Notes: a model not told the origin generated them from the sequence alone. Positions 1 to 20,735 are shown, counted from the first letter of the stretch. The stretch: 22,381 bases of DNA from an uncultured bacterium (GCA_963977445.1 CAXBPH010000098.1:1-22381); one strand, 5' to 3'. Made by a program: numbers and translations.

Positions 1-1821
1 TGCAAGGAACATCTGGGCGTAATGCCACGGGGCATGTGGCTCACCGAACGGGTCTGGGAACCCCATATGGCCCGTATTCTGGCCGAAGCCGGGGTGGAAT
101 ACGCTGCCCTCGACGATTCCCATTTCCTCTGCTCCGGGCCCCGTCCCGAAGACCTCTATGGATACTACATGACCGAAGAGGAAGGGGAAGCCATTAAAGT
201 CTTCCCTATTCAGGAGAAACTGCGCTATCTGGTCCCCTTTCATCCTGTGGAAGAGACCATTTCATACTTGCGAGATCTGGCCACCGAAGGGGGCGAGCGC
301 AGCGTGGTACTTCACGATGATGGCGAAAAATTCGGCGTTTGGCCCGGCACCTACAAGAGCGTTTTCGAAGATGGCTGGCTGGAAGAGTTTTTCACCGCCC
401 TCACCGAAAACCAGGATTGGATACACTGCGTTACCTACAGTCAATATATGGATGACCATCCGCCCTTGGGACGGACTTACATCACCTGCGCTTCCTACCA
501 GGAAATGATGGCCTGGGCGCTCCCCACCGAGCGGCAGCGGGAACTTCGGGCCGCCCGAGATGCCCTTGCCCACCAGCCCGAGTTGGAAGCCCAGTGTGGC
601 CCCTTCTTGCGGGGTGGTTTCTGGCGCAATTTCCTGGCCAAGTACCCCGAATCAAATACGATGCAGAAGCGTATGCTGCAGGTGAGTAAGCGTCTTGAGC
701 GTCTTCGGGAGCACGCGGGCACCCCGGCCTATGAAGAAGCACGCCAGTATCTGCACCGGGGTCAATGCAATTGCGCCTACTGGCACGGCCAATTTGGTGG
801 GCTCTACCTGAATCACCTACGCACAGCTATCTTCGAGCAACTCATTCGCGCCGATATCGCCTTGGATACCCTGGATGCAACCCATACGCCCCTTCGCCTA
901 GAAGCCGTAGATTTTGACGGTGACGGGCAAGACGAGCTCCTCATGAGCAACGACACCCTTGGCATCATCGTATCGCCCCATGACGGTGGCACGGTTGTCG
1001 AACTGGATTATAAGCCGGGCGCATTCAACCTCATCAACACACTGGCCCGGCGGGAAGAACCCTACCACGACAATCTCCCGGAGCAAGCCCCTGAGAATAG
1101 TGCCGGAGATGAGGGTGCCCACAGTATCCATGAGCCGTTTCAGGCCAAAGAAGCAGGTCTCCACGCCTTACTTTTTCAGGACCACTGGCGCCGCGCGAGT
1201 CTCCGCGACCATTTCCTGGCCATGGACACCGAGGTAGACGATCTTTACCGAAATCAAGCCCATGAACTGGCGGATCTTCCACGATCCACCTATGTGGGCA
1301 GCCTTACGAAACACGGCATTCTCCTGACCACGGAGGTGCCTCTCGAAAATGGCGCGGGAGCCATCTTGCAGGTACGTAAGGAGATTTCATTTACCAGCGA
1401 TGATTCCGGGCTCGAAATAACGTATGATATCTCTTGTAACAGCGCAGCGCCCTTTTCCGGCCTGTTCTGCCCCGAGTTTGGTATCAACTTCCTTACCGAA
1501 AGTGCCCCGGATCGATATTTTCATTCAGACGATCAGGATTTGGAACGGCCTATGCTCAATAGCCATGGCCGACTCGAAACGGTTGGTCACCTCGCCCTTC
1601 GGGACGAATGGCAAAATCTGGAGAGCGGATTTCGCTTAGAACAAGGGAATGGTTTTTTCTTTTTCCCATTGGAAACTATCAGCCAGTCGGAATGTGGTCA
1701 GGAACGTGTCCATCAAGGCAGTATGGTCTACCCCTGTTGGGCGTTAACGCTCTCTGGAGGCGAGACTGTTTCACGGAAATTAACTTGGTATGTGCGGCGA
1801 TTGAACGCCGTGCATGAGTGA
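1..1821 (+). CDS. GH57 family alpha-amylase / 4-alpha-glucanotransferase (DUF1925/DUF1926-type C-terminus), 5'-truncated by the window edge
   Basis: The frame is open from base 1 (CKEHLGV-MPRGMW...). GH57 motifs: GMWLTERVW (nucleophile Glu region), HDDGEKFG (acid/base Asp), ASYQEM, GFWRNFLAKYPESN, QCNCAYWHGxFGGLY. A DFDGDGQDE loop opens the C-terminal beta-sandwich. Stop TGA 1819-1821. Confidence 0.92.
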   Translation, partial: CKEHLGVMPRGMWLTERVWEPHMARILAEAGVEYAALDDSHFLCSGPRPEDLYGYYMTEEEGEAIKVFPIQEKLRYLVPFHPVEETISYLRDLATEGGERSVVLHDDGEKFGVWPGTYKSVFEDGWLEEFFTALTENQDWIHCVTYSQYMDDHPPLGRTYITCASYQEMMAWALPTERQRELRAARDALAHQPELEAQCGPFLRGGFWRNFLAKYPESNTMQKRMLQVSKRLERLREHAGTPAYEEARQYLHRGQCNCAYWHGQFGGLYLNHLRTAIFEQLIRADIALDTLDATHTPLRLEAVDFDGDGQDELLMSNDTLGIIVSPHDGGTVVELDYKPGAFNLINTLARREEPYHDNLPEQAPENSAGDEGAHSIHEPFQAKEAGLHALLFQDHWRRASLRDHFLAMDTEVDDLYRNQAHELADLPRSTYVGSLTKHGILLTTEVPLENGAGAILQVRKEISFTSDDSGLEITYDISCNSAAPFSGLFCPEFGINFLTESAPDRYFHSDDQDLERPMLNSHGRLETVGHLALRDEWQNLESGFRLEQGNGFFFFPLETISQSECGQERVHQGSMVYPCWALTLSGGETVSRKLTWYVRRLNAVHE

Positions 1822-1846
1822 GAGAGAAAAGGGATCTAACGTCATT

Positions 1847-2119
1847 ATGCAGGAACGAACAGAAGAAGTCCGGGTCGTCAATAAATTGGGTATACATGCC
1901 CGACCTGCGGCTGCACTGGTCCAGTGTGTGCTTAATTTTGAATGCGAAGTTTTTTTGTTGTTTAACGGAAGCCGGGTAAATGCGAAGAGCATCATGGGCC
2001 TATTGACACTGGCGGCGACCCAGGGTAGCCGAATCACGGTGACCTGCAAGGGCAGCGATGCAGACGCAGCAATAACCGCGATCAAAGAAATCTTCGCGGC
2101 CGGATTTGGAGAAAGCTAG
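1847..2119 (+). CDS. ptsH: Phosphocarrier protein HPr
   Basis: VNKLGIHARPAA (His15 motif) and VNAKSIMGLLTL (Ser46 motif). ATG 1847 gives a typical 90-aa HPr; the alternative ATG 1814 overlaps the GH57 stop. Confidence 0.95.
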   Translation: MQERTEEVRVVNKLGIHARPAAALVQCVLNFECEVFLLFNGSRVNAKSIMGLLTLAATQGSRITVTCKGSDADAAITAIKEIFAAGFGES

Positions 2120-3913
2120 GTGGAGTGCACCCTACGTGGCATAGGTGTATCACCCGGCATCGCCATCGGGCACGCCGTACTCTTCGGTAATGACCGTTAT
2201 GAGGTTCCGAAGTACAAGGTTGCCAATGCGGCACGGGAGCTGAAGCGCTTTGCCCGGGCACTCGATAAAACCCGGGACTACCTGAAGGATCTCCACCGGA
2301 AAGCCGAAGAAAAACTAGGTAGTGGTCACGCCGATATCTTCAAGGCCCACCTGCTCATTCTGGATGACGCCACCTTGCTGGAACAGGTGCAGCAGCGCAT
2401 TGAAAACGAACAGCTCAATGTAGAGCACATTCTGGACGAATTAAGTCAGTACTATACCAATCTGCTGAGCGCTATCGACGACACCCTGTTTCAGGCCCGA
2501 ACGGCCGATTTACTTGACGTGATGGATCGGCTGCAGCGCAATCTGCTCGATGCGGAGCGCGCCCATCCTCATGACATCCAGGATCCGGGTATTGTTCTGG
2601 CACACGATCTCTCTCCTTCGGATACGGTCATGATGGACCGCACCAAAGTGTTGGGTCTCGCGCTGGATTCCGGAAGCCCCACGTCCCACACGGCCATCCT
2701 GGCCCGGGCGCTGGAGATTCCTGCGGTGATGGGCCTGCGCCACATGGCGAGCAACCTGACCAACGAAACACTGGTAATTATCGATGGGCACGAGGGGTTG
2801 TTCATCTCAAATCCTTCGTCGGAGACGTTAGCGTCTTACGTAGAAAAGCAGACCAAGCTTGAGGAAACCCGCACGGCCCTGCGTAGTATCATGTTGCGGG
2901 GTGGGTCGGTCACCCGCGATGGTGTGGCCATACCCACCATGGCCAACGTGGAATTGCCTTTCGAGCTGGTACCCGAGCTACGGGACAGCGCCGAAGGCGT
3001 AGGGCTATTTCGTACCGAGTACCTGTTCCTCAACCGAAACACCCTCCCATCGGAAGAAGAACAGTATCTGGCCTACCTGCACGCCGCAGAGACGATGCAC
3101 CCCCACCCGGTCACCTTGCGCACCATGGATATAGGTGGCGACAAGTTTGTGTCTCACCTGCAGATTTCCAAGGAAGAGAACCCCCAGCTCGGCTGGCGTG
3201 CGGTGCGCTTCTGTCTCGAACGAAGAGACATATTCAAACCACAATTGCGTGCCATGCTTCGGGCCTCGACCGTGGGCAATATACAAATCATGTTTCCCAT
3301 GATCAGTGGTGTGGAAGAGCTCCGACAGGTCAAGGAAGTCGTTGAAGAAGTCAAAGAAGAGCTGCGCGCCGAGGGCATCGCCTTCAATCCGGACATGAAA
3401 ATTGGCTCCATGATTGAAGTGCCATCGGCGGTCACCTTGACCGACATACTCTCACGGGAAACCGATTTCTTCAGCATTGGTACCAACGATCTTATTCAAT
3501 ACTCTCTGGCCGTTGACCGGGTCAATGAAAAGATTGCCCATCTTTATGAGCCGGCCCACCCAGCGGTGCTCCGCATGATAAAGTGGACCTGCAACGCAGC
3601 ATGGGCAAGCGGAATCCCCTGTGGTCTCTGTGGCGAAATGGCCGGGGATCCCCTGTACACCGAGGTCCTGATTGGTCTGGGGGTCACATCGCTGAGCATG
3701 TCGGCCGTTTCTCTTCCCCTCGTCCGGGCGGAAATTGCCGAGATAGACTTTGCCGAAGCCCAGGAGCTTGCCGCACGTTTGTTGAAGATGGCCACTGCAG
3801 CGGAGATTAAGGCGTTAATACGAGAGCGCTATGAAAAGCGCCGCTCGGCGGAAGCCTTTATTTCCCTGGCCTCACACAGAGCGCCTGATGCCCCCACTCC
3901 GTTGGAGCTATAA
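2120..3913 (+). CDS. ptsI: PEP-protein phosphotransferase, PTS enzyme I (no N-terminal GAF domain)
   Basis: GIGVSPGIAIG start, TSHTAILAR (phospho-His), GVGLFRTEYLF, RTMDIGGDK, EENPQLGWRAVR, MIEVPSA, FSIGTNDLIQY, CGEMAGD. The GTG start directly abuts the ptsH TAG. Confidence 0.96.
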   Translation: MECTLRGIGVSPGIAIGHAVLFGNDRYEVPKYKVANAARELKRFARALDKTRDYLKDLHRKAEEKLGSGHADIFKAHLLILDDATLLEQVQQRIENEQLNVEHILDELSQYYTNLLSAIDDTLFQARTADLLDVMDRLQRNLLDAERAHPHDIQDPGIVLAHDLSPSDTVMMDRTKVLGLALDSGSPTSHTAILARALEIPAVMGLRHMASNLTNETLVIIDGHEGLFISNPSSETLASYVEKQTKLEETRTALRSIMLRGGSVTRDGVAIPTMANVELPFELVPELRDSAEGVGLFRTEYLFLNRNTLPSEEEQYLAYLHAAETMHPHPVTLRTMDIGGDKFVSHLQISKEENPQLGWRAVRFCLERRDIFKPQLRAMLRASTVGNIQIMFPMISGVEELRQVKEVVEEVKEELRAEGIAFNPDMKIGSMIEVPSAVTLTDILSRETDFFSIGTNDLIQYSLAVDRVNEKIAHLYEPAHPAVLRMIKWTCNAAWASGIPCGLCGEMAGDPLYTEVLIGLGVTSLSMSAVSLPLVRAEIAEIDFAEAQELAARLLKMATAAEIKALIRERYEKRRSAEAFISLASHRAPDAPTPLEL

Positions 3914-3915
3914 AC

Positions 3916-5076
3916 TTGAAAAAACAACGTATTTGCATACTCGGCGCGACGGGTTCCATCGGTCGAAGCGCCTTGGATGTCGTCCGTCATTATCCAGAGC
4001 GCTTTGAGGTCGTCGGCCTCGCTGCCCACCGGAACGTCGAGCTCCTCGCCGAGCAAATTGAAGAGTTCTCTCCCGAGTATGTTGCCGTCTCCGATGCTGA
4101 GGCATTGAAAGAGCTGCGCAACCGCAATCTTAATACCACCGTCATCGATGACAACACGCCTCTCGAAACCCTCGCCCGCATACCGGTGGACACCGTCCTC
4201 TGTGCCATTGTGGGCGCCGTAGGCCTGTCTCCCCTGTTGGCCGCCATTGATGCTGGCAATCGGGTGGCGGTCGCCAACAAAGAGCCCTTTGTCATGGCAG
4301 GCAAGCTCGTCATGGAACGGGCTCGGGCACGGGGTGTTGAGGTGCTGCCCGTGGACAGCGAACATAGCGCCATCTTCCAATGTGTCCATGGCCACGCCCA
4401 GCGGGATGTCGCGTGTATTCACCTGACGGCCTCCGGGGGTCCCTTCTACCAACGGGAGCGGAGCACCCTGGCGGAGGTGAAGCCCGAAGAAGCCACGAAA
4501 CACCCCACCTGGGATATGGGTGCCAAAATCAGTGTGGACTCGGCCACGCTCATGAACAAGGGTCTGGAAATTGTGGAGGCCATGTGGCTCTTTGACCTGC
4601 CCATCGAGCAAATCGATGTGGTGATCCACCCCCAGAGCATTATTCATAGTTTGGTGGAGTTTAAGGATGGTAATATCCTCGCCCATCTGGGCGTGACCGA
4701 CATGAAATTCCCCATTCTATTCGCACTCACCTACCCGGAACGGGTAGAATTACCTATGAAGCGTCTGGACCTTACCACCATGAAGGCGCTCACCTTTGAT
4801 GCCCCGGATTTCAGCGCCTTTCCCTGCCTGGCACTCGCACGACAGGCAGCGGCCACAGGTGGCACGGCGCCGGCGATTCTGAATGCAGCAAATGAAGAGG
4901 CCGTATTCGCGTTCTGCAACCATCAGCTGGGTTTTCTTCAAATCAGCGATGTGGTAGACTCGGTTTGCGGTAGCAGTGTAATCACACCAGACTATTCCCT
5001 CGAGGCTATCCTGGAGGCGGATCGTGGTGCGCGGGCGGCGGCCCGAGAGGCAATTGCCTCTTGCGCAATTCGCTAG
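3916..5076 (+). CDS. dxr: 1-deoxy-D-xylulose 5-phosphate reductoisomerase
   Basis: ILGATGSIG (NADPH binding), ANKE, LPVDSEHSAIFQ, LTASGGPF, HPTWDMGAKISVDSATLMNKGLE, HPQSIIHS, NAANEEAV. TTG start 2 nt after the ptsI stop. Confidence 0.97.
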   Translation: MKKQRICILGATGSIGRSALDVVRHYPERFEVVGLAAHRNVELLAEQIEEFSPEYVAVSDAEALKELRNRNLNTTVIDDNTPLETLARIPVDTVLCAIVGAVGLSPLLAAIDAGNRVAVANKEPFVMAGKLVMERARARGVEVLPVDSEHSAIFQCVHGHAQRDVACIHLTASGGPFYQRERSTLAEVKPEEATKHPTWDMGAKISVDSATLMNKGLEIVEAMWLFDLPIEQIDVVIHPQSIIHSLVEFKDGNILAHLGVTDMKFPILFALTYPERVELPMKRLDLTTMKALTFDAPDFSAFPCLALARQAAATGGTAPAILNAANEEAVFAFCNHQLGFLQISDVVDSVCGSSVITPDYSLEAILEADRGARAAAREAIASCAIR

Positions 5077-7052: not shown

Positions 7053-8363
7053 GTGCACAAAGTTACCTGTAAATTTGGTGGCACCTCTCTCGCAGACGCC
7101 GCCAATATTCGTATCATGCAATCCATCGTTCTGGAAGACCCGGCCCGTCGTTTCGTGGTCCCCTCTGCCCCAGGCAAACGCTTTGATACGGATCGCAAGG
7201 TTACCGACTTACTCTACGCGTGGCACAGTATCGCCTCTCAGGGACTTGATGCCTCCGAGCCCAAGCGCATCATCCAGGAACGCTTCGATGAACTTGCCCG
7301 GGAATTGAAGGTAGACTTCGACGTCACGCCCCACCTTGCTGAGATTGAAGCCCATCTGGACAAAGAGGATGCCCTCGACTATATGGCATCCCGGGGCGAA
7401 TACCTCAACGGGCGCCTGATTGCAACCTTGCTCGACGCGGAATTTGTTGATCCTGCTGACCACATCAAATTTACGCAGAGCGGTGATTTCGACGAGGCCA
7501 CCTATACCTCGTTGGGCGAGCGCCTTCAAGGCGACAGCCTTTACGTGATACCTGGATTCTATGGTGCCCAACCCAATGGCAACATTAAGACCTTTTCCCG
7601 GGGCGGTAGCGATGTTACGGGTGCCATTGTCGCCCGCGCCACCAACTCCGTGCTCTATGAAAACTGGACCGACGTACCGGGATTCCTGATGGCCGATCCG
7701 CGGATTGTAGAAAATCCACGGCGTATCGCGGAAGTTACCTACCAGGAATTGCGGGAGCTCTCCTATATGGGTGCTACCGTTCTTCATGATGAGGCCATCT
7801 ACCCGGTCCGGGAACCCGGAATCCCCATTCAGATTCGCAGCACCCGTGTTCGCGATAATCCTGGAACACGGATAGTCACGTCCCGCAAGACGAATCATCC
7901 CCTCTGTGGCATTGCTGGCCGCAAGGGATTCAGCATGCTCAACATTGAAAAAACGTTGATGAACCACGAACGTGGTTTCGGACGTAAGGTCTTGTCGGCG
8001 GTTGAAGAACTTGGCATTGGCTGGGAACACATGCCCACGGGCATTGATACCATATCCCTAATCTTTAAAGACGAAGAACTTGGAACACAGGGTGATAAGC
8101 TGATTGACGCCGTGCAACAACGTTGCCGGCCTGATAGTATCGGGTTGGTTTCCGGCCTGGCAATGATTGCTACCGTCGGACTGGGAATGAATCACCATGT
8201 CGGTGTCGCAGCTCGCTTGTTTACGGCGCTTTCAGAAGCGAAGGTAAACATTCGCGTCATCGATCAGGGTTCATCGGAAATGAATATCATCGTCGGGGTG
8301 GAAGAAGAAGCATTGAGTCGTTCTGTAAACGCTATCTATCGCGCTTTTGAAACCTGGGAATAA
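7053..8363 (+). CDS. lysC: Monofunctional aspartate kinase with two C-terminal ACT domains
   Basis: KFGGTSLAD, VPSAPGKR, SRGEYLN, FSRGGSDVTG, WTDVPGFLMADPRIV, ELSYMGATVLH, ACT region (GFGRKVL; IATVGLGM...GVAARLF; QGSSEMNI). GTG start with GGAG upstream. Confidence 0.93.
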   Translation: MHKVTCKFGGTSLADAANIRIMQSIVLEDPARRFVVPSAPGKRFDTDRKVTDLLYAWHSIASQGLDASEPKRIIQERFDELARELKVDFDVTPHLAEIEAHLDKEDALDYMASRGEYLNGRLIATLLDAEFVDPADHIKFTQSGDFDEATYTSLGERLQGDSLYVIPGFYGAQPNGNIKTFSRGGSDVTGAIVARATNSVLYENWTDVPGFLMADPRIVENPRRIAEVTYQELRELSYMGATVLHDEAIYPVREPGIPIQIRSTRVRDNPGTRIVTSRKTNHPLCGIAGRKGFSMLNIEKTLMNHERGFGRKVLSAVEELGIGWEHMPTGIDTISLIFKDEELGTQGDKLIDAVQQRCRPDSIGLVSGLAMIATVGLGMNHHVGVAARLFTALSEAKVNIRVIDQGSSEMNIIVGVEEEALSRSVNAIYRAFETWE

Positions 8364-8370
8364 ACCTACT

Positions 8371-9846
8371 ATGCGACGACACACGAAGATTGTATGCACC
8401 ATCGGCCCTGCCTCCGCCAGCGCCGAAATGGTGGAAAAACTTATTGACGCGGGCATGAATGTCGCACGACTGAATTTTTCTCACGGAACGCACGAAACCC
8501 ATCTGCGCCAGTATGAAATAATTCGTGAGGTTGCTGCGAGAAAAAAAGCCAACATTGCCGTACTGATGGACCTCCAAGGCCCGAAGATCAGAACGGGCAA
8601 GCTGGAAGCCCCCCACTCCGTAGAGCTGGAGCCTGGGAATCCCTTTACGATAACTGCTGAGAAGATCGTGGGCAACGTATCCCGCGTTTCCACCACCTAT
8701 ACGAAACTCCCCTACGACCTGAAACCCGATGACCGCATTCTAATGGCCGATGGCACCCTGGAACTGCGGGTGGTCGACGTTGCGCCACCGGAAATCCACT
8801 GCGTCGTTGTCCGGGGCGGCACGCTGGGTGAGAGTAAAGGCATCAATCTTCCTGGCGTCAAAATCACGGAGCCTTCCCTTACGGAAAAAGACCGCCGCGA
8901 CCTCGAATTCGTGATTGCCCAAGGCGCGGATTATGTTGCCCTTTCCTTTGTGCGCTCACCCGAGGACATTTCTGAACTGCGCCAAATCCTTCGGGATGCC
9001 AACTCGGAGACGGGTATTGTGGCAAAAATAGAGCGTCCAGAAGCCTTGGATTGCTTCGATGAAATCGCCTCCCTCAGCGACGTGATCATGGTGGCCCGTG
9101 GCGATCTTGGCGTGGAAGTAGACTTTGAAGAAGTCCCGAGCATTCAGAAACGCCTAATCCGAACCTGCAATGAACTCGGTGTTCCTGTCATCACGGCGAC
9201 CCAGATGCTTGAGTCCATGATAGAGGAAGATCAGCCAACCCGCGCCGAAGTAACGGACGTGGCCAACGCCATCTATGACGGCACCGATGCGGTCATGCTT
9301 TCGGGCGAAACGGCCTCTGGAAAATACCCTATCGAGGCCTGCACGGTCATGCACCGCGTTGCACTCCGTACGGATATGGAGCTTCACAAGAACGTTCTTG
9401 AACGTCGACTGATTCACCTTCGTCATCAAGAGCTTCAAACCCGCCGCCAGGGCCTTGCGGGCGTGCGCATCAACTCCTACGCGGATGCTATCGGTCAGGC
9501 CGTATTCCGCATGTCCACGAGTCTGGAAATCGCTCGCATCGTATGTTTCACCACGACAGGATATACTGCTGGTGCCATTTCTCGCTATCGGCCAAAAGTC
9601 CGCATTACGGCATTTACAAACCGCGAAACCACCTGCCGGAAGTGCGCGTTGATGTGGGGCGTTTCCACCGTATTGACCAAGGATTTTGATGAAATTGAAG
9701 GGTTGGTTGCTGAAGTGGAAGAAAAATTAATTCACTATCAGGCCGCCGAAGTTGGGGATACCATATTGATTGTTGCGGGCACGCCACTTGCCGCTGGTGG
9801 TCGCACCAACCTGTTGAAACTACATACCATTGGAGATCCCGCGTAA
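8371..9846 (+). CDS. pyk: Pyruvate kinase (GPKIR, Lys117-type)
   Basis: TKIVCTIGP, RLNFSHG, DLQGPKIR, KGINLP, ALSFVR, AKIE, MVARGDLGVE, ATQMLESM, PTRAEVTDVANA, AVMLSGETASGKYP. ATG 8371 preferred over the track's TTG 8347. Confidence 0.96.
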   Translation: MRRHTKIVCTIGPASASAEMVEKLIDAGMNVARLNFSHGTHETHLRQYEIIREVAARKKANIAVLMDLQGPKIRTGKLEAPHSVELEPGNPFTITAEKIVGNVSRVSTTYTKLPYDLKPDDRILMADGTLELRVVDVAPPEIHCVVVRGGTLGESKGINLPGVKITEPSLTEKDRRDLEFVIAQGADYVALSFVRSPEDISELRQILRDANSETGIVAKIERPEALDCFDEIASLSDVIMVARGDLGVEVDFEEVPSIQKRLIRTCNELGVPVITATQMLESMIEEDQPTRAEVTDVANAIYDGTDAVMLSGETASGKYPIEACTVMHRVALRTDMELHKNVLERRLIHLRHQELQTRRQGLAGVRINSYADAIGQAVFRMSTSLEIARIVCFTTTGYTAGAISRYRPKVRITAFTNRETTCRKCALMWGVSTVLTKDFDEIEGLVAEVEEKLIHYQAAEVGDTILIVAGTPLAAGGRTNLLKLHTIGDPA

Positions 9847-9914
9847 GGAATCTCCCTGGTAAAGGGCAGTAATGACCTAATATCCTGTTGCCCATGAATT
9901 ATCATTAGTTTGTG

Positions 9915-9954
9915 AAGCAGCGAGGGAGTCCAGTGGGATTCCCCGCTGTTTTCT
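9915..9954 (+). terminator. Intrinsic-terminator-like hairpin between pyk and the bacillithiol operon (terminator or attenuator)
   Basis: AAGCAGCG-A-GGGAGTCC / loop AGTG / GGATTCCC-CGCTGTTT: about 16 bp with one bulge and two G-U pairs, running into TTTTCT. Confidence 0.6.
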
Positions 9955-9977
9955 CGCTTTCCTTCGATGGATTTGCC

Positions 9978-10748
9978 ATGAGCCTTACAGAGCTAAAAAA
10001 TACCCATTCCGAAGTGGAGGATGACTGGTTCACCCGGGCTTTCGACGCCCTCTACCCCATCATCTACGCCCACCGGACCGTTGAAGCGGCTACGGCTGAA
10101 TCTGCCTTTGCCATTGAGCAGCTACAACTCTGCCCCTCCGGCTCGGTACTGGATCTCTGCTGCGGCAACGGCCGCCATATGGTCCATCTCCTTAAGCACA
10201 CCCCCCACGTCTTCGGATTGGATTATTCCACGGCACTGCTCGGTTTTGCCCGGGAGCAATTGGGTGCGACGGGCGCACTACTTCGTGCCGATATGCGCGC
10301 CATACCCTTTGAAAATGCATTCGATGCGGTCGCCAATTTTTTTACGAGCTTTGGCTATTTTCAGACCGATGAGGAAAACCTCGCTGTTGCTGAAGGCATC
10401 GCCCGTTCCCTGAAGCCCGGCGGTCGTTTCTTCATGGATTATCTGAACCCGGAGTATGTTCGTGCTCATCTCGTGGCCGAGAGTTCCCGCCGAGCGGATA
10501 GTTACGATATCTCGGAGCACCGATGGGTCGACGATCAATCCGAACGGGTGAACAAAGTCATGAAAATTCACCGTGATGGAAAACTCGTCAGTCAAACATC
10601 GGAGTCGGTAAAACTGTATACCCCCGATGTGCTTCAATCCCTCCTCGCCGAAGCCGGACTGGTCGTGGAAAATCGATTTGGAAACTATGACGGAAGTCCA
10701 GTGGGGCCAGACAATCCCCGACAAATACTTGTTGGTGTTCGGAACTGA
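9978..10748 (+). CDS. Class I SAM-dependent methyltransferase; candidate bacillithiol N-methyltransferase (NmbA-like)
   Basis: Motif I VLDLCCGNGRH, GLDYS, RADMR, FDAV.NFFTSFGYF, LKPGGRF; N-terminal WF...F..LY..IY.HR. First gene of the bsh operon, 3 nt before bshC. ATG 9978 preferred because the track's GTG 9912 would translate through the hairpin. Methyltransferase call is firm; the substrate is inferred. Confidence 0.85.
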   Translation: MSLTELKNTHSEVEDDWFTRAFDALYPIIYAHRTVEAATAESAFAIEQLQLCPSGSVLDLCCGNGRHMVHLLKHTPHVFGLDYSTALLGFAREQLGATGALLRADMRAIPFENAFDAVANFFTSFGYFQTDEENLAVAEGIARSLKPGGRFFMDYLNPEYVRAHLVAESSRRADSYDISEHRWVDDQSERVNKVMKIHRDGKLVSQTSESVKLYTPDVLQSLLAEAGLVVENRFGNYDGSPVGPDNPRQILVGVRN

Positions 10749-10751
10749 TTC

Positions 10752-12311
10752 ATGCCATCTCTGATCGACGACTATATCGCGGGTGAATCGAAATTACTGA
10801 GGCACTATGCGGCCTCCCCAAAAGACGTATTCACCCATGCTATTCCACCACGCCCTTGGGATCCCACACTCACCGAAGAGTTGACGGCCTATCAGGCCTA
10901 TCTCGGTGCACCCAAGGCGGTAAATGGCGATGCAGGTGTCTTCATAACGGGACAGCAACCGGGCATTTTCACGGGGCCACTCTATACCATCTACAAAGCG
11001 ATCACGGCGATCCAATTGGCGGAACAAGCCACCGCGATGACGGGGAAGCCCTTCGTTCCCATCTATTGGGTCGGCGGCGATGATCACGACTTCGAGGAAA
11101 TCAGTCGGGTCCATCTTCTGAACAAACAGCACACGCCCATTTCATTAGCGCTGGACGCCGCGCCGGATCAACCTCCCCTCTCTATTTTTAGACTTCCCGT
11201 CTCCCATGACCTCCATACCTTGGTGGAACGGGCGGCCACCGAAGCACCTGGTTCGGAGTTTTCCAATGAGATTCGGGAATTCCTGCACGATACGGTAGAA
11301 GATTCCGGCAATCTTTCCGAGTGGCATGCCCGCATCATGGCGCGCCTCTTTCGCGATACGCCGCTGCTCATTTTTACCCCCGAACTCGACGCCGCCCGTC
11401 GCGTAGCCATTCCCATCTTTGAACGGGAAATACGTACGCCCCTGGAGAGCACGGCCCAGCTAAACGGTGGTGGTGCCCTATTGGAAGAATCTGGTTATGG
11501 CGCGCAGGTGGTTAAGGACGATACAAGCTGTAACTTCTTTATCGAGCATAAGCAAATGCGCTGTCGCGTCCGCTACGTAGATGGCCAGTTCGTAGTCCCC
11601 GAGACCGGTGAACGTTTTGACCAAGAGGCCATGTTGGCGTGGCTACACCGGTCGCCCGAAGCCTTCACGGCCAATGTCGCCCTGCGTTGCGTGGTCCAGC
11701 AGACCTTGTTCCCCACCCGCGCCTATATCGCGGGCCCCGGTGAACTCGCCTACTGGGGGCAGCTTAAAGGAGTCTTCGCCCATTTTGACCAATCCATGCC
11801 CGTGGTTTACCCACGCATGCGGGCCGTCCTGACGACGCTCAAGACCAACAAACTCTTAAGCAAGTATAAGCTGACACCATTCGACCTGAATGCACCCCTG
11901 AACGACCTGGAAGAAGCCGCGTTGCGATGTGGAGCACAGGACCCCAGTCTCGCCCTCTTTGACGCACGACGATCCGCTATAGGCGAGTCCTTGCGTGGTC
12001 TGGAATCCGATTTGGATGGTCTTGGCAAGAAAGGCCGCGGCGCAAGTGATCTGGCGCGACAGTTCTCCGCGCAGGTAACCCAGTCCATGGAGCACCTGGA
12101 GCGTAATCTGCTCCGGGCCGATGAGACCCGAACGGCAACCGTGCGAAATCAGATTACCCGGCTCAGCACGGAGCTGGCCCCCGAACGTAAGCCCCAGGAA
12201 CGGTACTACACACTCTTTTCCTGGCTCTTTCAGTATGGCTGGGATTTAATTCCGACCCTTCATGAACGACTCGACCTGGAAAATATGGGCGTGCAGGAGG
12301 TCGAGTTGTGA
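10752..12311 (+). CDS. bshC: Bacillithiol biosynthesis cysteine-adding enzyme BshC
   Basis: ITGQQPGIFTGPLYTIYKAITAI, PIYWVGGDDHDFEEI, NVALRCVVQQTLFP, AYIAGPGELAYWGQL, MPVVYPR, a coiled-coil-like segment, and C-terminal PQER. Confidence 0.95.
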   Translation: MPSLIDDYIAGESKLLRHYAASPKDVFTHAIPPRPWDPTLTEELTAYQAYLGAPKAVNGDAGVFITGQQPGIFTGPLYTIYKAITAIQLAEQATAMTGKPFVPIYWVGGDDHDFEEISRVHLLNKQHTPISLALDAAPDQPPLSIFRLPVSHDLHTLVERAATEAPGSEFSNEIREFLHDTVEDSGNLSEWHARIMARLFRDTPLLIFTPELDAARRVAIPIFEREIRTPLESTAQLNGGGALLEESGYGAQVVKDDTSCNFFIEHKQMRCRVRYVDGQFVVPETGERFDQEAMLAWLHRSPEAFTANVALRCVVQQTLFPTRAYIAGPGELAYWGQLKGVFAHFDQSMPVVYPRMRAVLTTLKTNKLLSKYKLTPFDLNAPLNDLEEAALRCGAQDPSLALFDARRSAIGESLRGLESDLDGLGKKGRGASDLARQFSAQVTQSMEHLERNLLRADETRTATVRNQITRLSTELAPERKPQERYYTLFSWLFQYGWDLIPTLHERLDLENMGVQEVEL

Positions 12312-13024
12312 GATTTGACGTCCTCGCTATAGGTGCCCATCCGGACGATGCCGATCTTGGCGTAGGTGGCCTCTTGTGCAAACTCGCCAAGGCGGGTAAG
12401 CGGACGGCGATTCTCGACTTGAGCGAAGGCGAGCTGGGTTCCCGTGGCACCGTTGCCGAGCGTCGTGAAGAAGCGTCCGCAAGCACAACAATTCTGGGCG
12501 TCACCACGCGATTTAACGCCCAGCTACCCGATGGTGGCATTACGAATTCCATGGAGCAGCGTCTCGCACTGGTCCGTATCCTCCGGGAGACCCGCCCGAC
12601 CATCGTGCTGGGCCCCATGGAACCCGATCGCCATCCCGATCACGAGGGTGCGCATAAACTCGTGAAAGACGCGTGCTTCTTCTCGGGTGTCCACGGCATC
12701 GACACGGGACAAGTCCCCCACCGCCCAACGACGGTGTATGGCTACTATGCCTACCAGGAAGGGGAGAAACTCCCAAGCCACGTGGTCGACATTTCAACCG
12801 TATTCGAGCGAAAGATGGATGCCCTGCGCAGCTTTCGTTCTCAATTCTATAACCCGGATTATGAGGGCGCAGCGACCCACGTTGCCTCTCAACAGTTCTG
12901 GGACAGCATCGAAACCAGGGCAGCTTATTGGGGAAATCGCATCGGGGTTCGCTATGGCGAGCCCCTCTATGGCACACTGCCCGTTGCGATGGATCTTCCG
13001 CCTGAACTGGAGGAACAATCATGA
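12308..13024 (+). CDS. bshB1: N-acetyl-alpha-D-glucosaminyl L-malate deacetylase BshB1 (PIG-L family)
   Basis: DVLAIGAHPDD, DLSEGELGSRGT..R..EA, DRHPDH, VVDIS..FE.K..AL....SQF, G.RIGV.YGE. GTGA overlap with bshC; GGAGG SD at 12296-12300. Confidence 0.93.
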   Translation: MRFDVLAIGAHPDDADLGVGGLLCKLAKAGKRTAILDLSEGELGSRGTVAERREEASASTTILGVTTRFNAQLPDGGITNSMEQRLALVRILRETRPTIVLGPMEPDRHPDHEGAHKLVKDACFFSGVHGIDTGQVPHRPTTVYGYYAYQEGEKLPSHVVDISTVFERKMDALRSFRSQFYNPDYEGAATHVASQQFWDSIETRAAYWGNRIGVRYGEPLYGTLPVAMDLPPELEEQS

Positions 13025-14178
13025 AAATTGGAATTACGTGCCACCCCTCTGCGGGGGGCAGCGGCATCATGGCTACCGAACTCGGCTTTGCCCTGGCGGA
13101 ACGGGGCCACACGGTTCATTTCGTCACCTCCGAGCCGCCCTTTCGCCACAACGCCTACCGTGAAAATATCTTTTTCCACTACGTAGACTCCGTTTCCTAT
13201 CCTCTGTTTCGCACGCCCCCCTATTCGCTTGCACTGGCCACGAAGATCTGCGAAGTCGCCGAAGAACACAATATTGAGTTGTGGCACGCCCACTATGCCA
13301 TCCCCAACGCCGCGGCGGCCATTTTCGCCAATGAGATGTTGCCCGAAGAAAAGAAATTTGGCATCATCACCACTCTCCACGGCACGGATATCACGCTGGT
13401 GGGTAGCGACCCGTCTTTCTATCGCATTACTCGCTTCGCCATGGAGCGGAGCTGTGCCGTTACAGCCGTTTCTCAGTGGCTGAACGACGAGACCATGCGT
13501 GAATTTCAGTTGGCCCGCCCCATCAAGACCATCTACAACTTTCTCGATCACAGCAAGTTTAACAACGATGCCGTAAAACGTTGTCAATTGGGGTGCGGGG
13601 ATGAAAAAATCCTCATGCACATCTCCAATTTTCGCCCGGTAAAGCGGGTTACCGATGTGGTCCGCATCTTCAAGAAAGTCCTGGATCAGATTGACGCAAC
13701 ACTCGTCATGGTCGGTGAAGGCCCAGAGCGTATGGCGGCCGTTGGCGTGGCAAAACAGCTCGGCATTTCCGACCGCATCAAGTATCTGGGCAATTACGAA
13801 AATATTGAGTCCATCATTCCATGCGCCGACCTCGTTCTCCAACCCAGTGAGCATGAGAGCTTCGGGTTGGTACCCCTGGAAGCCATGGCCTGTCGGGTCC
13901 CCGTGATTGCAACCGCCAGCGGCGGCATCACGGAAGTTATCGAGCATGGCGTCTCCGGATACCTTTGTGAGGTTGGCGACATTGAGCATATGGCCCAATG
14001 TGCCCTCGAAATACTCACCAACCCAGAACTGGCGGCCTCCATCGGTCAGCGTGGTCAGGAGCGCGCCCAGTCGGGCTTCCGTCGGGATGATATCGTCGCC
14101 CAGTATGAAGCGGTCTATGATGAGGTCCTCGCAATGCGACGGGCGGGCTACACGAACAAAATGAGCGCCTACGCATAA
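13021..14178 (+). CDS. bshA: N-acetyl-alpha-D-glucosaminyl L-malate synthase BshA (GT4)
   Basis: MKIGITCHPSAGGSGIMATELG, YPLF..PPYSLALA, HAHYAIP, TTLHGTDITLVG, HISNFRPVKR, ESFGLVPLEAMAC. ATGA overlap with bshB1; GGAGGA SD. Confidence 0.96.
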   Translation: MKIGITCHPSAGGSGIMATELGFALAERGHTVHFVTSEPPFRHNAYRENIFFHYVDSVSYPLFRTPPYSLALATKICEVAEEHNIELWHAHYAIPNAAAAIFANEMLPEEKKFGIITTLHGTDITLVGSDPSFYRITRFAMERSCAVTAVSQWLNDETMREFQLARPIKTIYNFLDHSKFNNDAVKRCQLGCGDEKILMHISNFRPVKRVTDVVRIFKKVLDQIDATLVMVGEGPERMAAVGVAKQLGISDRIKYLGNYENIESIIPCADLVLQPSEHESFGLVPLEAMACRVPVIATASGGITEVIEHGVSGYLCEVGDIEHMAQCALEILTNPELAASIGQRGQERAQSGFRRDDIVAQYEAVYDEVLAMRRAGYTNKMSAYA

Positions 14179-14221
14179 GATTACTGTGTACGAAAACTCC
14201 TCTGTAAATTCAATGTGGGGC

Positions 14222-14251
14222 TTGTCTTCCATTGTCCGTGAAGGCTAGAAT
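14222..14251 (+). promoter_or_regulatory. Putative sigma70-type promoter for the GT-C / sulfatase-like pair
   Basis: TTGTCT (14222-14227), 18-nt spacer, TAGAAT (14246-14251), in the AT-richer gap after bshA. Confidence 0.45.
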
Positions 14252-14321
14252 GCGGCGGTTGAATCACTGACGTCGGGCGTGTCCCGACCCGTCGCGGCTG
14301 GAAAGGATTCTCGTATCTCCC

Positions 14322-15968
14322 GTGGATAACCCCAGCACCGAGGAACCTTCATTTCTCCCTGGACGCTCCCACTGCTTCTTCTGGGGCGGTGTGTTTACAC
14401 TCCTGGGAATCGTACTGTTCCTTCCCCCGTTATTTTCGTATTTCAGCAGCGACGACTTCCTCCACCTGAGCACCATCATGAATGGGGCCCTGCCCTTTGC
14501 CCCCACCGGCAATGGCCTCGGATTTTACCGGCCGATCATTGGCTGGAGTCTCTGGCTGGAATACCAACTCTGGGGACTCCATCCCTTCGGCTACCACGCC
14601 AGCAATGTGCTCATGCATCTCCTGAACAGTATGCTCGTTGCAATACTCGCCGCATTACTCCTGCCAGCGGAGCGAAAGAATCCATTCGTGGCCGTGGGAG
14701 CCGGACTCATCTTTTTGACCATGGCCTGCCACGCCGAGCCCGTATCCTGGATTTCAGGCAGGACCGACCTGCTGGCCACGTTTTTTGCCTTGCTCAGTCT
14801 TTGCGCATTGGCCTATGGCATCCGCAAGCCTTCACCGAGGATGTTGTTTGCTTCCCTCGTGCCCTTTGGGCTTGCCTTGCTGTCCAAAGAGTCGACCATC
14901 GCCCTCCCCATTCTCGTCCTCGCGATTGCCGTCTACCTGAGGAGTATGGATCGCTGGCGTGTGTCCCGTAGTTGCTGGTTGACCGCGCTGGCACTCGGGG
15001 TGTTGGTACTCTGCGGCTACTTCGCGATTCGCTATTGGAACCTTGGATCCTTTGTCGGCGGCTACGGCGTTCGTGGTCATCTTCGCTTCCACCAGGATCT
15101 CCTCGCGCAGGCCATGTCCCGTTTTGCGTGGCGCGTCTACTGTCCGCCGCTGCCCCAGTGGACCGAAGGCATTCTCGAACCCCATGGCCGTCGCCTGGCG
15201 GACATCGTTACGATACTCTTTTTCCTTCACGGGCTTGCCTGGTCGTGGCTCGCCTGGAAGTCTCCGGCACGGCGTACCGGGCTGTTTCTCTATGGGGCCT
15301 TCTGGATCGCCCTGCTCCCCGTCATTAATATTCGCATCTATTGGACGAATTCCGAGAGCGAACGTTTTCTCTATCTTGCATCCTTATTCGCAGCACTCGG
15401 GGCGGCATGGGCGATAAACGCCCTTCCCAAGGCCTCTTGGCGGCTAACGGTGCTCCTGCTTCTCCTCTCCATGCAGGCTTTCTTCCTCACCCAGTCCAAT
15501 CTGCGTTGGCGCGATGCCAGTTTCATCGCACGGGACATTGTGGAAGGCATCCAACGTGTATCCGGTGATGAAGCCATCATCCTGACCAACAAGCCTGATT
15601 CCCTAGACGGCGCAATTGTATTCCGCACCGGTCTACCGGAGGCCCTTCATTTTTTCGGGCCAACACCGAAGCCCTCCCTGTCTGTTGAAGTACTCTTTGC
15701 CACAACCCTCTACCAGCGGAACAGTACCTTCACGCTTGTTGAGGAATCGGTAGACACGTCCACCTTCCAGCTCACCGCCACAGACCCGGACTCCGTCATG
15801 GTGGAGGAAGATAGCCTGGATAGCATTGTGACGGTAGACGGCAATGAACGACGTGCCACGTTTCATTTTCGGATACCATTGCGGGACCAAAAACTTCTCT
15901 ACTATACTGACGGCGAGATACGGGGCCCGTCGCGCCCACCCAACCCTATCGACCCTACGGAACGGTGA
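14322..15968 (+). CDS. Polytopic membrane protein, GT-C-fold glycosyltransferase-like (PMT/TMTC-type membrane domain, no TPRs) with a soluble C-terminal domain
   Basis: About 10-11 hydrophobic segments. Acidic SDDF after TM1, FYRPI, PFGYHASNVLMHLLN, HAEPVSWISGRTDLL, ALLSKE and ERFLYL are motifs typical of this family. GTG start is uncertain. Confidence 0.7.
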   Translation: MDNPSTEEPSFLPGRSHCFFWGGVFTLLGIVLFLPPLFSYFSSDDFLHLSTIMNGALPFAPTGNGLGFYRPIIGWSLWLEYQLWGLHPFGYHASNVLMHLLNSMLVAILAALLLPAERKNPFVAVGAGLIFLTMACHAEPVSWISGRTDLLATFFALLSLCALAYGIRKPSPRMLFASLVPFGLALLSKESTIALPILVLAIAVYLRSMDRWRVSRSCWLTALALGVLVLCGYFAIRYWNLGSFVGGYGVRGHLRFHQDLLAQAMSRFAWRVYCPPLPQWTEGILEPHGRRLADIVTILFFLHGLAWSWLAWKSPARRTGLFLYGAFWIALLPVINIRIYWTNSESERFLYLASLFAALGAAWAINALPKASWRLTVLLLLLSMQAFFLTQSNLRWRDASFIARDIVEGIQRVSGDEAIILTNKPDSLDGAIVFRTGLPEALHFFGPTPKPSLSVEVLFATTLYQRNSTFTLVEESVDTSTFQLTATDPDSVMVEEDSLDSIVTVDGNERRATFHFRIPLRDQKLLYYTDGEIRGPSRPPNPIDPTER

Positions 15969-19358: not shown

Positions 19359-20735
19359 ATGTCTCTCAGGCTGCCCAAATTTACTGACAGCGCCACCGCA
19401 ACGAAACTCCTTACGAACTTGGGTGAGGAATTCGCCGTCGTAGCCAATCTCTCTCATGTCTTCCCACCCTACGAGCTCTATCCCCTCGCTCCCGGACGAA
19501 AACGACTGGCCCACCGGCTTCGTGCTGCGGTGATGGATATGGACGGCACGACAACGACCACGGAGCCCCTCTGCATCAATGCGCTGGAGACGATGGTCGG
19601 ACGAATCAGCGGCAAAAACACCCAACCCGATTGGCCGGGCCTCGATCCAAGAACCGACTACCCCCACATCATCGGCAACAGTAGCACCCGCCATGTGGAA
19701 TACCTCCTTCAGACGTATGGCCATACCATTCAACCTCAATTGTTCATGGAGGCCCTGGTGCAGGCGGCCGCGTGGACCCTGGGGTTTTCGCAGGATGCAT
19801 CGCGAAAATCGGACCTGGAAAACATGCTGGACATACTGGGCATAGACCGACTTAAGTCGGACCCGCGATTCCGTGTGCTATGCACCACCGAACGCCATGA
19901 CGGCAACGACGAGCGCTCCGCGATTGGGACGCTCGCCTCCGAGCTCATAGACGCCTTCCCGGGCACCGACTTCCCACGACTCACCCGGGCCGCGGTGGAG
20001 ATCTATTACCAACGCTACCATGAGTTATTGTCCGCGGTCGCCTGCGCCAATGGAGCACCCCTGCCTGCCTACATTGGCGCGCCGTCGGATGGCCTGCTGA
20101 TTCAACCCATGCCCGGTATTGGAATGTATCTTGCCCTCGTAACCGGTATGTTGGGTGATGAAGCCGCAACATGCTATGCACCACTGGCGGCCCACCTGAA
20201 AACATCGGGCATCGCGATATCATTGCCCGTCGATGACGGTGAGGCCCAACTGGCCTCGCTGGGAAGGCATTTTAAGGCCCACCCGGCGCGGGTAGCCCTC
20301 GTCACATCCTCTATCGCCTACGAAGCGCAGGTTGTCCTCGACGAAGTCTTCCGCCAGCTCTATGATGAGGTCCTGGACTGGGGATTGTCTCAGGAATGCA
20401 CAACGCGTATACGGAATCGATTCCAGTCACCAACGACCTTCTACGATGCCATCGTTACCGCCTCAGACTCCTGTGAAATGCGCCTGAAACCCCACCGCGA
20501 TCTCTATTCCCTGGCCTTGGGCCGCCTTGGCCTCCATCCAGATGAATTTGGTGATGTGGCGGGATTCGAGGATAGTGAATCAGGAACCATTGCCATTCGT
20601 GCGGCAGGGATTTCCGTCTGCTGTGCCCTGCCTTTTCACCTGACCACCGGGCACGCTTTCGAAGCAGCGACGCACACCTGTGTTGGAGGACTCCCCCAGG
20701 TCATCCTCCAGGAGCGCTGTTTCCTGCCCGAATAG
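19359..20735 (+). CDS. HAD-superfamily phosphatase/hydrolase with a very large cap insertion
   Basis: Motif I AVMDMDGT (D60/D62), motif II ALVTSS, motif III KPH..LY, motif IV FEDSESG..A..AAG. GGAAAGG SD. Confidence 0.8.
   Translation: MSLRLPKFTDSATATKLLTNLGEEFAVVANLSHVFPPYELYPLAPGRKRLAHRLRAAVMDMDGTTTTTEPLCINALETMVGRISGKNTQPDWPGLDPRTDYPHIIGNSSTRHVEYLLQTYGHTIQPQLFMEALVQAAAWTLGFSQDASRKSDLENMLDILGIDRLKSDPRFRVLCTTERHDGNDERSAIGTLASELIDAFPGTDFPRLTRAAVEIYYQRYHELLSAVACANGAPLPAYIGAPSDGLLIQPMPGIGMYLALVTGMLGDEAATCYAPLAAHLKTSGIAISLPVDDGEAQLASLGRHFKAHPARVALVTSSIAYEAQVVLDEVFRQLYDEVLDWGLSQECTTRIRNRFQSPTTFYDAIVTASDSCEMRLKPHRDLYSLALGRLGLHPDEFGDVAGFEDSESGTIAIRAAGISVCCALPFHLTTGHAFEAATHTCVGGLPQVILQERCFLPE

Follow-up and report, generated by a model that had tools for sequence, protein, structure and literature searches.

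Our analysis of a 22,381-nucleotide (nt) stretch of DNA from an uncultured Hydrogenedentota (Candidatus Hydrogenedentota) bacterium (GCA_963977445.1, CAXBPH010000098.1:1-22381; hereafter the window) indicated that a unit of four plus-strand genes at 9978-14178, nmbA-bshC-bshB1-bshA, very probably makes N-methyl-bacillithiol (N-Me-BSH), as judged from its sequence. The identities of the genes, their tight coupling, the conservation of their linkage and the NmbA-type features of the first product were obtained directly from our data. The enzyme activities and the position of the methyl group are predicted from these features and from the established pathway, as follows. BshA would condense N-acetylglucosamine (GlcNAc) with L-malate into GlcNAc-malate, BshB1 would remove the acetyl group, and BshC would add cysteine to give bacillithiol (BSH). 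The NmbA-type methyltransferase (MT) would then use S-adenosylmethionine (SAM) to methylate reduced BSH at its cysteine nitrogen. The NmbA proteins of Chlorobaculum tepidum (CtNmbA, CT1040) and Paenibacillus polymyxa (PpNmbA) methylate reduced BSH in vitro (PMC12719100), and deletion of CT1040 leaves C. tepidum with BSH in place of N-Me-BSH, a thiol of 412 Da (PMC6282198). A methylated bacillithiol, and an operon tying the MT directly to the pathway, had already been proposed in the first-pass annotation of this DNA, and published homology criteria, signature residues and linkage to bshC now support that proposal at the sequence level.

Organization and boundaries of the four-gene unit

The unit and the hairpin that precedes it are composed of the following features (lengths in amino acids, aa).

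9978-10748, plus strand: nmbA-like class I SAM methyltransferase gene (256 aa; predicted bacillithiol N-methyltransferase)
10752-12311, plus strand: bshC (519 aa; adds cysteine in the synthesis of bacillithiol; TIGR03998, PF10079, PF24850)
12308-13024, plus strand: bshB1 (238 aa, GTG start; GlcNAc-malate deacetylase; TIGR04001, PF02585 PIG-L)
13021-14178, plus strand: bshA (385 aa, ATG start; GT4 N-acetylglucosaminyl-malate synthase; TIGR03999)
9916-9955, plus strand: terminator-like hairpin, then TTTT (9949-9952), within the 131-nt spacer between pyk and the MT gene

Families were called with the curated equivalog cut-offs of NCBIfam, and Pfam served as a second library. The last three genes had been read as bshC, bshB1 and bshA from their motifs, and all three products scored above the curated cut-offs for these families. 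BshC matched TIGR03998 with 398.4 bits (cut-off, 265.8), PF10079 with 270.4 bits and PF24850 with 57.6 bits, in line with the Rossmann-like and coiled-coil domains of this family; its N-terminal ~40 residues lie outside the TIGR03998 match yet are conserved in relatives, with Y8 invariant in the BshC alignment. BshB1 reached 249.5 bits with TIGR04001 (cut-off, 182.5) and 84.3 bits with PF02585 PIG-L, as against 34.3 bits with the BshB2 model (cut-off, 195.25). BshA scored 502.2 bits with TIGR03999 (cut-off, 273.7), the next family reaching 121.9 bits, under its own cut-off, and the MshA model 70.3 bits (cut-off, 462.5).

Direct reading of the junctions agreed with the earlier description of four co-directional genes, the first two lying 3 nt apart and the later ones linked through overlaps of the forms GTGA and ATGA. 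The MT stop codon (TGA, 10746-10748) is separated from the bshC start (ATG, 10752) by 'ttc', the bshB1 start (GTG, 12308) lies over the bshC stop (TGA, 12309-12311), and the bshA start (ATG, 13021) lies over the bshB1 stop (TGA, 13022-13024). Shine-Dalgarno-like sequences were found 7-10 nt 5' of the starts of bshB1 (aggagg) and bshA (ggagga), and no clear motif of this type precedes the MT or bshC starts. The G+C content is even over the region (0.52-0.59). Because of the gene overlaps, the four genes are expected to be co-transcribed. Among the sequencing runs listed as containing this sequence there was no RNA run, and one DNA run contained 0.10 of the sampled words.

The start of the MT gene deserves comment. 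Its open frame as listed spans 9912-10748 from GTG 9912, with ATG 9978 in frame, and the public gene call (P0001, 271 aa) starts at GTG 9933. On comparative grounds ATG 9978 is the better choice over either GTG, because the two closest MT relatives, P0002 (256 aa) and P0005 (257 aa), begin with 'MS..' at the equivalent of this codon, and because the MT open frames of two genomes of the same genus (G030 and G053) are just 257 aa long for a 255-residue match. The hairpin falls inside both GTG-initiated frames, which is a mild argument in the same direction. The start assigned in the first-pass annotation, ATG 9978, was thus upheld.

The unit is flanked by 131 nt after the pyruvate kinase gene pyk (8347-9846, stop at 9846) and by 143 nt before a gene at 14322-15968. 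The upstream spacer (9847-9980) has a folding energy of -47.1 kcal/mol (z, -3.72), and 0 of 200 shuffled sequences were as stable; the consensus scan placed stems with T-rich tails at 9924-9943 and 9931-9948, with three terminator-like sites found as against 4.9 expected in shuffles. The downstream spacer (14176-14325) showed no unusual folding (z, +0.95), and Rfam and tRNA scans of the window returned no matches. Between the hairpin and ATG 9978 no promoter-like site was found, the nearest match (9973-10001) extending into the MT gene; promoter-like sites in the scan were no commoner than in shuffles. Aspartate kinase and pyk genes occupy 7053-9846 of the window (plus strand). Throughout the phylum, aspartate kinase, alone or together with pyk, habitually precedes the MT gene (loci L005, L006, L086, L087, L089 and L092-L096), and aspartate kinase or pyk still stands beside the MT gene in both genomes whose bsh genes have moved away (G019 and G086).

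To call the unit one operon may be an overstatement if the four genes are co-transcribed with the upstream aspartate kinase and pyk genes, or are served by internal promoters, so that the unit would not be self-contained. We regard this as unlikely, though with some weight. All 10 fetched Hydrogenedentota loci with upstream sequence have aspartate kinase, either alone or accompanied by pyk, immediately before the MT gene, and the only near match to a promoter ahead of the unit runs into the MT gene. However, the spacer between pyk and the MT gene carries a stable hairpin and a T-run, the overlaps within the unit contrast with the spacing on either side of it (131 nt and 143 nt), and the four genes recur outside Hydrogenedentota without aspartate kinase or pyk upstream.

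Linkage of the methyltransferase gene to bshC

The first-pass annotation had called for a survey of neighbourhoods combining an MT gene with bsh genes, and linkage was found both within the phylum and beyond it. Close homologues, by their source names, assign the genome of the window to Hydrogenedentota. We sampled 121 Hydrogenedentota genomes, the window included, with an MT cut-off of E<1e-40. The MT was detected in 107, BshC in 112 and BshA in 113, and MT and BshC occurred together in 106. In 99 of these 106 genomes, and also in G081, bshC is the next gene after the MT gene and has the same orientation. The automated count was 96, which includes G081 (its MT match is cut by a contig end and falls below the E cut); four genomes (G013, G038, G064 and G068) were added by coordinates, the genes being adjacent and the BshC alignment starting late. 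Among the remaining seven, the matches in five (G004, G062, G089, G095 and G104) abut contig ends or are truncated, and two (G019 and G086) truly separate the MT gene from bshC, with type II secretion genes following the MT. In 88 of 109 genomes, BshA is encoded on the same strand as BshC and 706-905 nt after it. BshB occupied the BshC-BshA gap in all eight fetched phylum loci with BshC, and bshA followed in five of them and lay on another contig in three.

One of these genomes, G068, carries on contig C129 (L089:2459-4414, minus strand) a 651-aa frame that joins MT residues 8-242 to BshC residues 104-519, and bshB and bshA follow normally. We rejected this frame as a working fusion because it is devoid of the MT C-terminus, with the invariant R248, and of BshC residues 1-103, with ten invariant positions; the frame probably represents a deletion or a disrupted gene.

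Outside the phylum survey, a single collection of species-representative genomes gave 464 confirmed relatives, of which we used the best 80. This sample is biased to similarity with the query, and 78 of its 80 loci could be judged. The MT-then-bshC order was present in 25 of the 80: all 10 loci of Gemmatimonadota, six of Acidobacteriota, two each of Planctomycetota and Hydrogenedentota, one each of Chloroflexota, Fibrobacterota, Eiseniibacteriota and Electryoneota, and one other metagenome-assembled genome (MAG). The full four-gene order was found in 11 of the 80 loci, spread over Acidobacteriota, Planctomycetota, Chloroflexota, Fibrobacterota and Electryoneota. Within the same 80, the MT-then-bshC order was seen in none of the loci from Bacteroidota (0/23), Bacillota (0/6), Ignavibacteriota (0/2) and Balneolota (0/2), and no Chlorobiota locus was among these best 80 of 464. 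Mapped on a 44-row MT tree, linkage required at least six changes of state, and it extends over at least eight named phyla. The gene arrangement is not chance, because it recurs across Hydrogenedentota and in other phyla.

An exhaustive search of library representatives also yielded a natural full-length MT-BshC fusion (P0150, 807 aa), in which an NmbA-like MT (residues 5-248 of the fusion) and BshC (PF10079 at 341-642) are joined by a linker of ~50-90 residues. Its cluster, to which P0273-P0279 also belong, has eight members drawn from four sources (NCBI, JGI, Logan and ENA), with contigs of up to 204,685 bases. A word-based search for longer fused relatives returned two long proteins, neither with a recorded BshC Pfam domain. 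The 3-nt coupling, the MT-bshC order in both samples and this recurrent fusion led us to consider that, where the two genes are coupled or fused, their products could form a physical complex in which the cysteine added by BshC is methylated before the product is released; we hold this to be rather improbable. The ligase activity of BshC has been hard to reconstitute in vitro and, if such a complex were real, the compact cassette or the 807-aa fusion would provide a handle on BshC.

Relationship of the methyltransferase to NmbA and to its paralogs

The earlier reading of the first gene as a class I SAM methyltransferase held, both through its matches to generic Pfam families of this class (Methyltransf_25, 61.4 bits) and through SAM motif I, VLDLCCGNG at residues 57-65, which corresponds to VLDIAxGxG in CtNmbA. 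When the product of the first gene, METHYLTRANSFERASE, was compared with all PDB sequences by phmmer, the best match was 9ri2_A (E, 1.6e-37; 132.2 bits), a chain of PDB 9RI2, which is NmbA (CT1040) of C. tepidum (PMC12719100), and the next chain was DesVI 3bxo (E, 1.2e-14). MT residues 14-252 align to residues 13-258 of 9ri2_A, so that 239 of 256 residues are covered in proteins of 256 and 266 aa, with 87 of 239 positions identical (~36% by hand count; 32% by Foldseek). Homologues of NmbA have been defined by an E-value of <=1e-20, similar length, coverage >80% and identity >25% (PMC12719100), and the window MT falls within all of these limits, with phmmer against the PDB taking the place of BLAST against RefSeq.

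Residue-level comparison points the same way. In an alignment of the window MT with 44 of the 150 best library representatives (45 sequences in all), G126-Y127-F128, aligned with G-Y134-F135 of CtNmbA, is invariant, and by hand reading CtNmbA has the same residue at all 20 invariant columns. Three further positions, R33, K193 and E209, are all present in 35 of 35 rows of group A (selected bsh-linked rows plus Paenibacillaceae, Bacteroidota and others) and occur in 1/8, 0/8 and 0/8 rows, respectively, of a paralog clade described below; CtNmbA, which is in neither group, carries R, K and E at the aligned positions. This signature is our own and is unpublished.

The MT family comprises 532 representative clusters at E<=1e-30, and four MT-like matches were found in the genome of the window itself. 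Compared with 9RI2, the operon MT scored 132.2 bits and an MT-ATP-grasp fusion 103.2 bits, the comparison covering these two of the four. Since a second copy in the same genome reaches such a score, similarity alone does not settle orthology. The second copy (G000:C31, L002:1435-3336, plus strand) is a 633-aa protein with an NmbA-like domain and a C-terminal ATP-grasp/D-Ala-D-Ala-ligase-like domain, and it is devoid of the R33/K193/E209 signature. The phylum survey returned 22 matches with E-values of 1e-21 to 1e-28 in frames of 574-720 aa, which suggests the same MT-ATP-grasp architecture, confirmed in the window's own genome only.

Two trees were built, in which rows of Paenibacillaceae and Flavobacteriaceae took the place of CT1040. 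The first, a quick tree, had 95 rows, made up of all 80 outside loci, 11 loci from the phylum survey, three MTs of the window's genome and the window MT. Here the window MT fell into an 83-row set (SH-aLRT, 96) together with Paenibacillaceae, Bacteroidota, Acidobacteriota, Gemmatimonadota and Planctomycetota; the long-branch own-genome MT used as outgroup (L004) was drawn into this set as well. A careful tree of 44 rows left out close duplicates and eight long branches (L004, L035, L046, L055, L060, L067, L082 and L086). It recovered a Hydrogenedentota MT clade (support, 100/100) and a separate eight-row paralog clade (99/99), which holds the own ATP-grasp fusion, the MT of G001, one Ignavibacteria, three Chloroflexota, one Thermoleophilaceae and one Dormiibacterota sequence. 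None of these eight MTs adjoins bshC. BshC was found in five of five genomes with an unlinked group-A MT (above cut-off in four, and as weak pieces in Holophagaceae), and in one of five genomes with a paralog-clade MT. Members of the paralog clade (L034, L053, L062, L015, L065, L019 and L088) occur mostly in genomes in which BshC was not found, among them Ktedonobacter, Thermoleophilaceae, Dormiibacterota and Dehalococcoidia. The paralog-clade MTs probably act on another substrate, although on E-value they would pass the published NmbA threshold.

Two measures were rejected as discriminators of NmbA. Bit scores to 9RI2 were 165.5 for Ignavibacteriaceae, 161.2 for Paenibacillus, 132.2 for the window MT, 116.3 for Dehalococcoidia, 103.3 for Flavobacterium and 103.2 for the own ATP-grasp fusion, such that a paralog-clade sequence (Dehalococcoidia) outscores Flavobacterium. 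Because that paralog reaches 116 bits, the published thresholds alone would fail to separate paralogs, and the R33/K193/E209 signature, if confirmed, would help to tell true NmbAs from close paralogs in genomes in which BshC was not found. The second measure was fold. The AF2 model of the MT (pLDDT, 92.9; pTM, 0.88) shows a class I fold with a four-strand cap, and a Foldseek search with it placed 9ri2_A 12th (E, 1.7e-20; TM, 0.68/0.76), behind CypM, SeMT, 1wzn and others, among near-equal class I methyltransferases. The crystal structure of CtNmbA has a narrow cap, the 'molecular basket', and AlphaFold models of CtNmbA differ from it there (PMC12719100).

Both of these outcomes weigh against assignment of the window MT to NmbA, as do several other points. 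The NCBIfam and Pfam matches include no NmbA-specific model, and no NCBIfam model exceeded its cut-off, the best being a daptide methyltransferase (71.2 bits; cut-off, 175). Since the groups used to choose the signature positions were themselves defined with a tree built from these sequences, the signature is partly circular, and independent evidence is confined to the CtNmbA reading and the BshC profile. The deep forks of the careful tree are not resolved by support and its root lies on a long branch, and the approximately unbiased (AU) test does not reject a union of the Hydrogenedentota and paralog clades (p, 0.231); the tree thus does not prove orthology. A paralog-clade MT co-occurs with BshC in an Ignavibacteria MAG (G125), in which a clear second, group-A copy was not seen. 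The true separation of the two genes in G019 and G086 belongs with these points.

Taken to their extreme, such points could mean that the MT is unrelated to bacillithiol and has been kept as a neighbour by inheritance, the locus making plain BSH, a possibility we find scarcely credible. It would accommodate an MT that matches generic methyltransferase models only, the two genomes in which the MT stays beside aspartate kinase/pyk with the bsh genes elsewhere, and the close paralogs in genomes where BshC was not found. However, it is difficult to reconcile with linkage that spans so many named phyla and changes state repeatedly on the tree, with the existence of a natural MT-BshC fusion, with a verified BSH methyltransferase as the best solved relative, and with the co-occurrence of BshC in all five genomes with an unlinked group-A MT. 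Assignment of the MT to NmbA, acting on bacillithiol, is the reading that we retain.

Predicted product, thiol system and comparison with known systems

If the MT is an NmbA-family enzyme of this pathway, its product could still be something other than N-Me-BSH, such as N,N-dimethyl-BSH, a derivative with an S- or O-methyl group, or a precursor (for example cysteine or GlcN-malate) methylated before ligation. A secondary amine can serve as methyl acceptor for NmbA in vitro (PMC12719100), the window MT is just ~36% identical to CtNmbA and belongs to a fully supported phylum-specific clade, and its gene stands ahead of bshC, the two being fused in some cases. Against these stand the 20 family-invariant columns and the three signature residues shared with CtNmbA. 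Moreover, by phylum the MTs of Paenibacillus are as far removed from CtNmbA as the window MT is, and the product of PpNmbA is still the same (PMC12719100). For C. tepidum, no N-methyl-cysteine was reported at any point, and BSH builds up in the knockout (PMC6282198). We therefore consider a different product very improbable, and the fallback offered in the first-pass annotation, a non-NmbA enzyme making a different BSH derivative, found no support in our data. N-Me-BSH remains the predicted product.

Other parts of a bacillithiol system were detected in the same genome: a YpdA-type putative BSH disulfide reductase (343.1 bits; cut-off, 339.9) and a BrxA/B bacilliredoxin (172.4 bits; cut-off, 100). 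In this 94% complete genome, no GshB was found above cut-off (64.6 bits; cut-off, 299) and no PF04262 glutamate-cysteine ligase was found, other ligase families not having been searched. Because neither of these was found, N-Me-BSH/BSH is probably the main low-molecular-weight thiol of the organism. A further YpdA-like stretch (G000:C135:3334-4116, plus strand; 158.1 bits, below cut-off) lies in an 883-aa frame, and a weak methyltransferase match is located at 8299-8808 of the same contig.

The rest of the window holds genes of other kinds. A tightly packed plus-strand chain at 1-5076 encodes a GH57 alpha-amylase/4-alpha-glucanotransferase-type enzyme (ending at 1821), HPr (1814-2119, 8-nt overlap), enzyme I of the phosphotransferase system (PTS; 2120-3913, no gap) and Dxr (3916-5076, 2-nt gap), and no EII component of the PTS was found in the window. 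The gene after bshA (14322-15968, plus strand) encodes a 548-aa PMT_2-like membrane protein with a sub-threshold PMT_2 match (25.3 vs 26.1 bits) and without an NCBIfam match; a homologue with 44% identity follows bshA in the same-genus genome G022, and not in the other fetched phylum loci. At 19359-20735 (plus strand), a 458-aa protein has weak HAD-hydrolase matches at residues 360-421 only, and its first ~350 residues are without a family match.

The literature that we searched (subscription journals lying outside it), including PMC6282198, PMC12719100 and PMC6336425, yielded no description of the four-gene operon, of an MT-BshC fusion or of bacillithiol in Hydrogenedentota, and the main text of PMC12719100 does not mention an operon, gene cluster or gene neighbourhood. 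The operon form and the MT-BshC fusion provide genomic-context evidence for the link between NmbA and bacillithiol that is independent of C. tepidum genetics, and the 4.2-kb cassette is a ready-made unit for heterologous N-Me-BSH production.

Among characterized enzymes, CypM (7WZG), DesVI (3BXO), TylM1 and CcbJ are N-methyltransferases with a four-strand cap and share the fold of the window MT (Foldseek E, 3e-22 to 7e-19; TM, 0.68-0.81); in contrast to NmbA with 132 bits, they score at most 57 bits, and they act on other substrates and have no link to bsh genes. CtNmbA (CT1040, 9RI2) and PpNmbA resemble the window MT as class I SAM methyltransferases of comparable length that share motif I, the Y/F pair, the invariant columns and the signature, and that co-occur with complete bshA, bshB and bshC, here all directly downstream of the MT gene. 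Unlike them, the window MT belongs to a separate clade specific to its phylum, and its activity is a prediction. In C. tepidum, CT1040 lies apart from CT0548, CT1419 and CT1558, going by the locus tags given in PMC12719100, which agrees with dispersed pathway genes in this organism, whereas the window MT heads the bsh genes.

A RefSeq survey (Hammerstad et al. 2025; PMC12719100) reported that 1765 of 3842 species with the BSH pathway, across 43 validly published phyla, also have NmbA. It used the same four families and the rule that bshA-C together with an NmbA homologue predicts N-Me-BSH. Fibrobacterota and Chloroflexota were given there as being without the pathway, whereas here Fibrobacterales and Anaerolineae MAGs carry the four-gene cluster, and Hydrogenedentota is not mentioned in the searched portions of its supplementary text, one file of which was covered in part. 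Our findings thus extend the predicted use of N-methyl-bacillithiol to an uncultured phylum that is apparently outside the published survey. The known chemistry is unchanged by them: the pathway, its chemistry and the enzyme are already known from NmbA genetics (PMC6282198) and from biochemistry and structure (PMC12719100), and the unit described here is a tidy further example of that system, not a new one.

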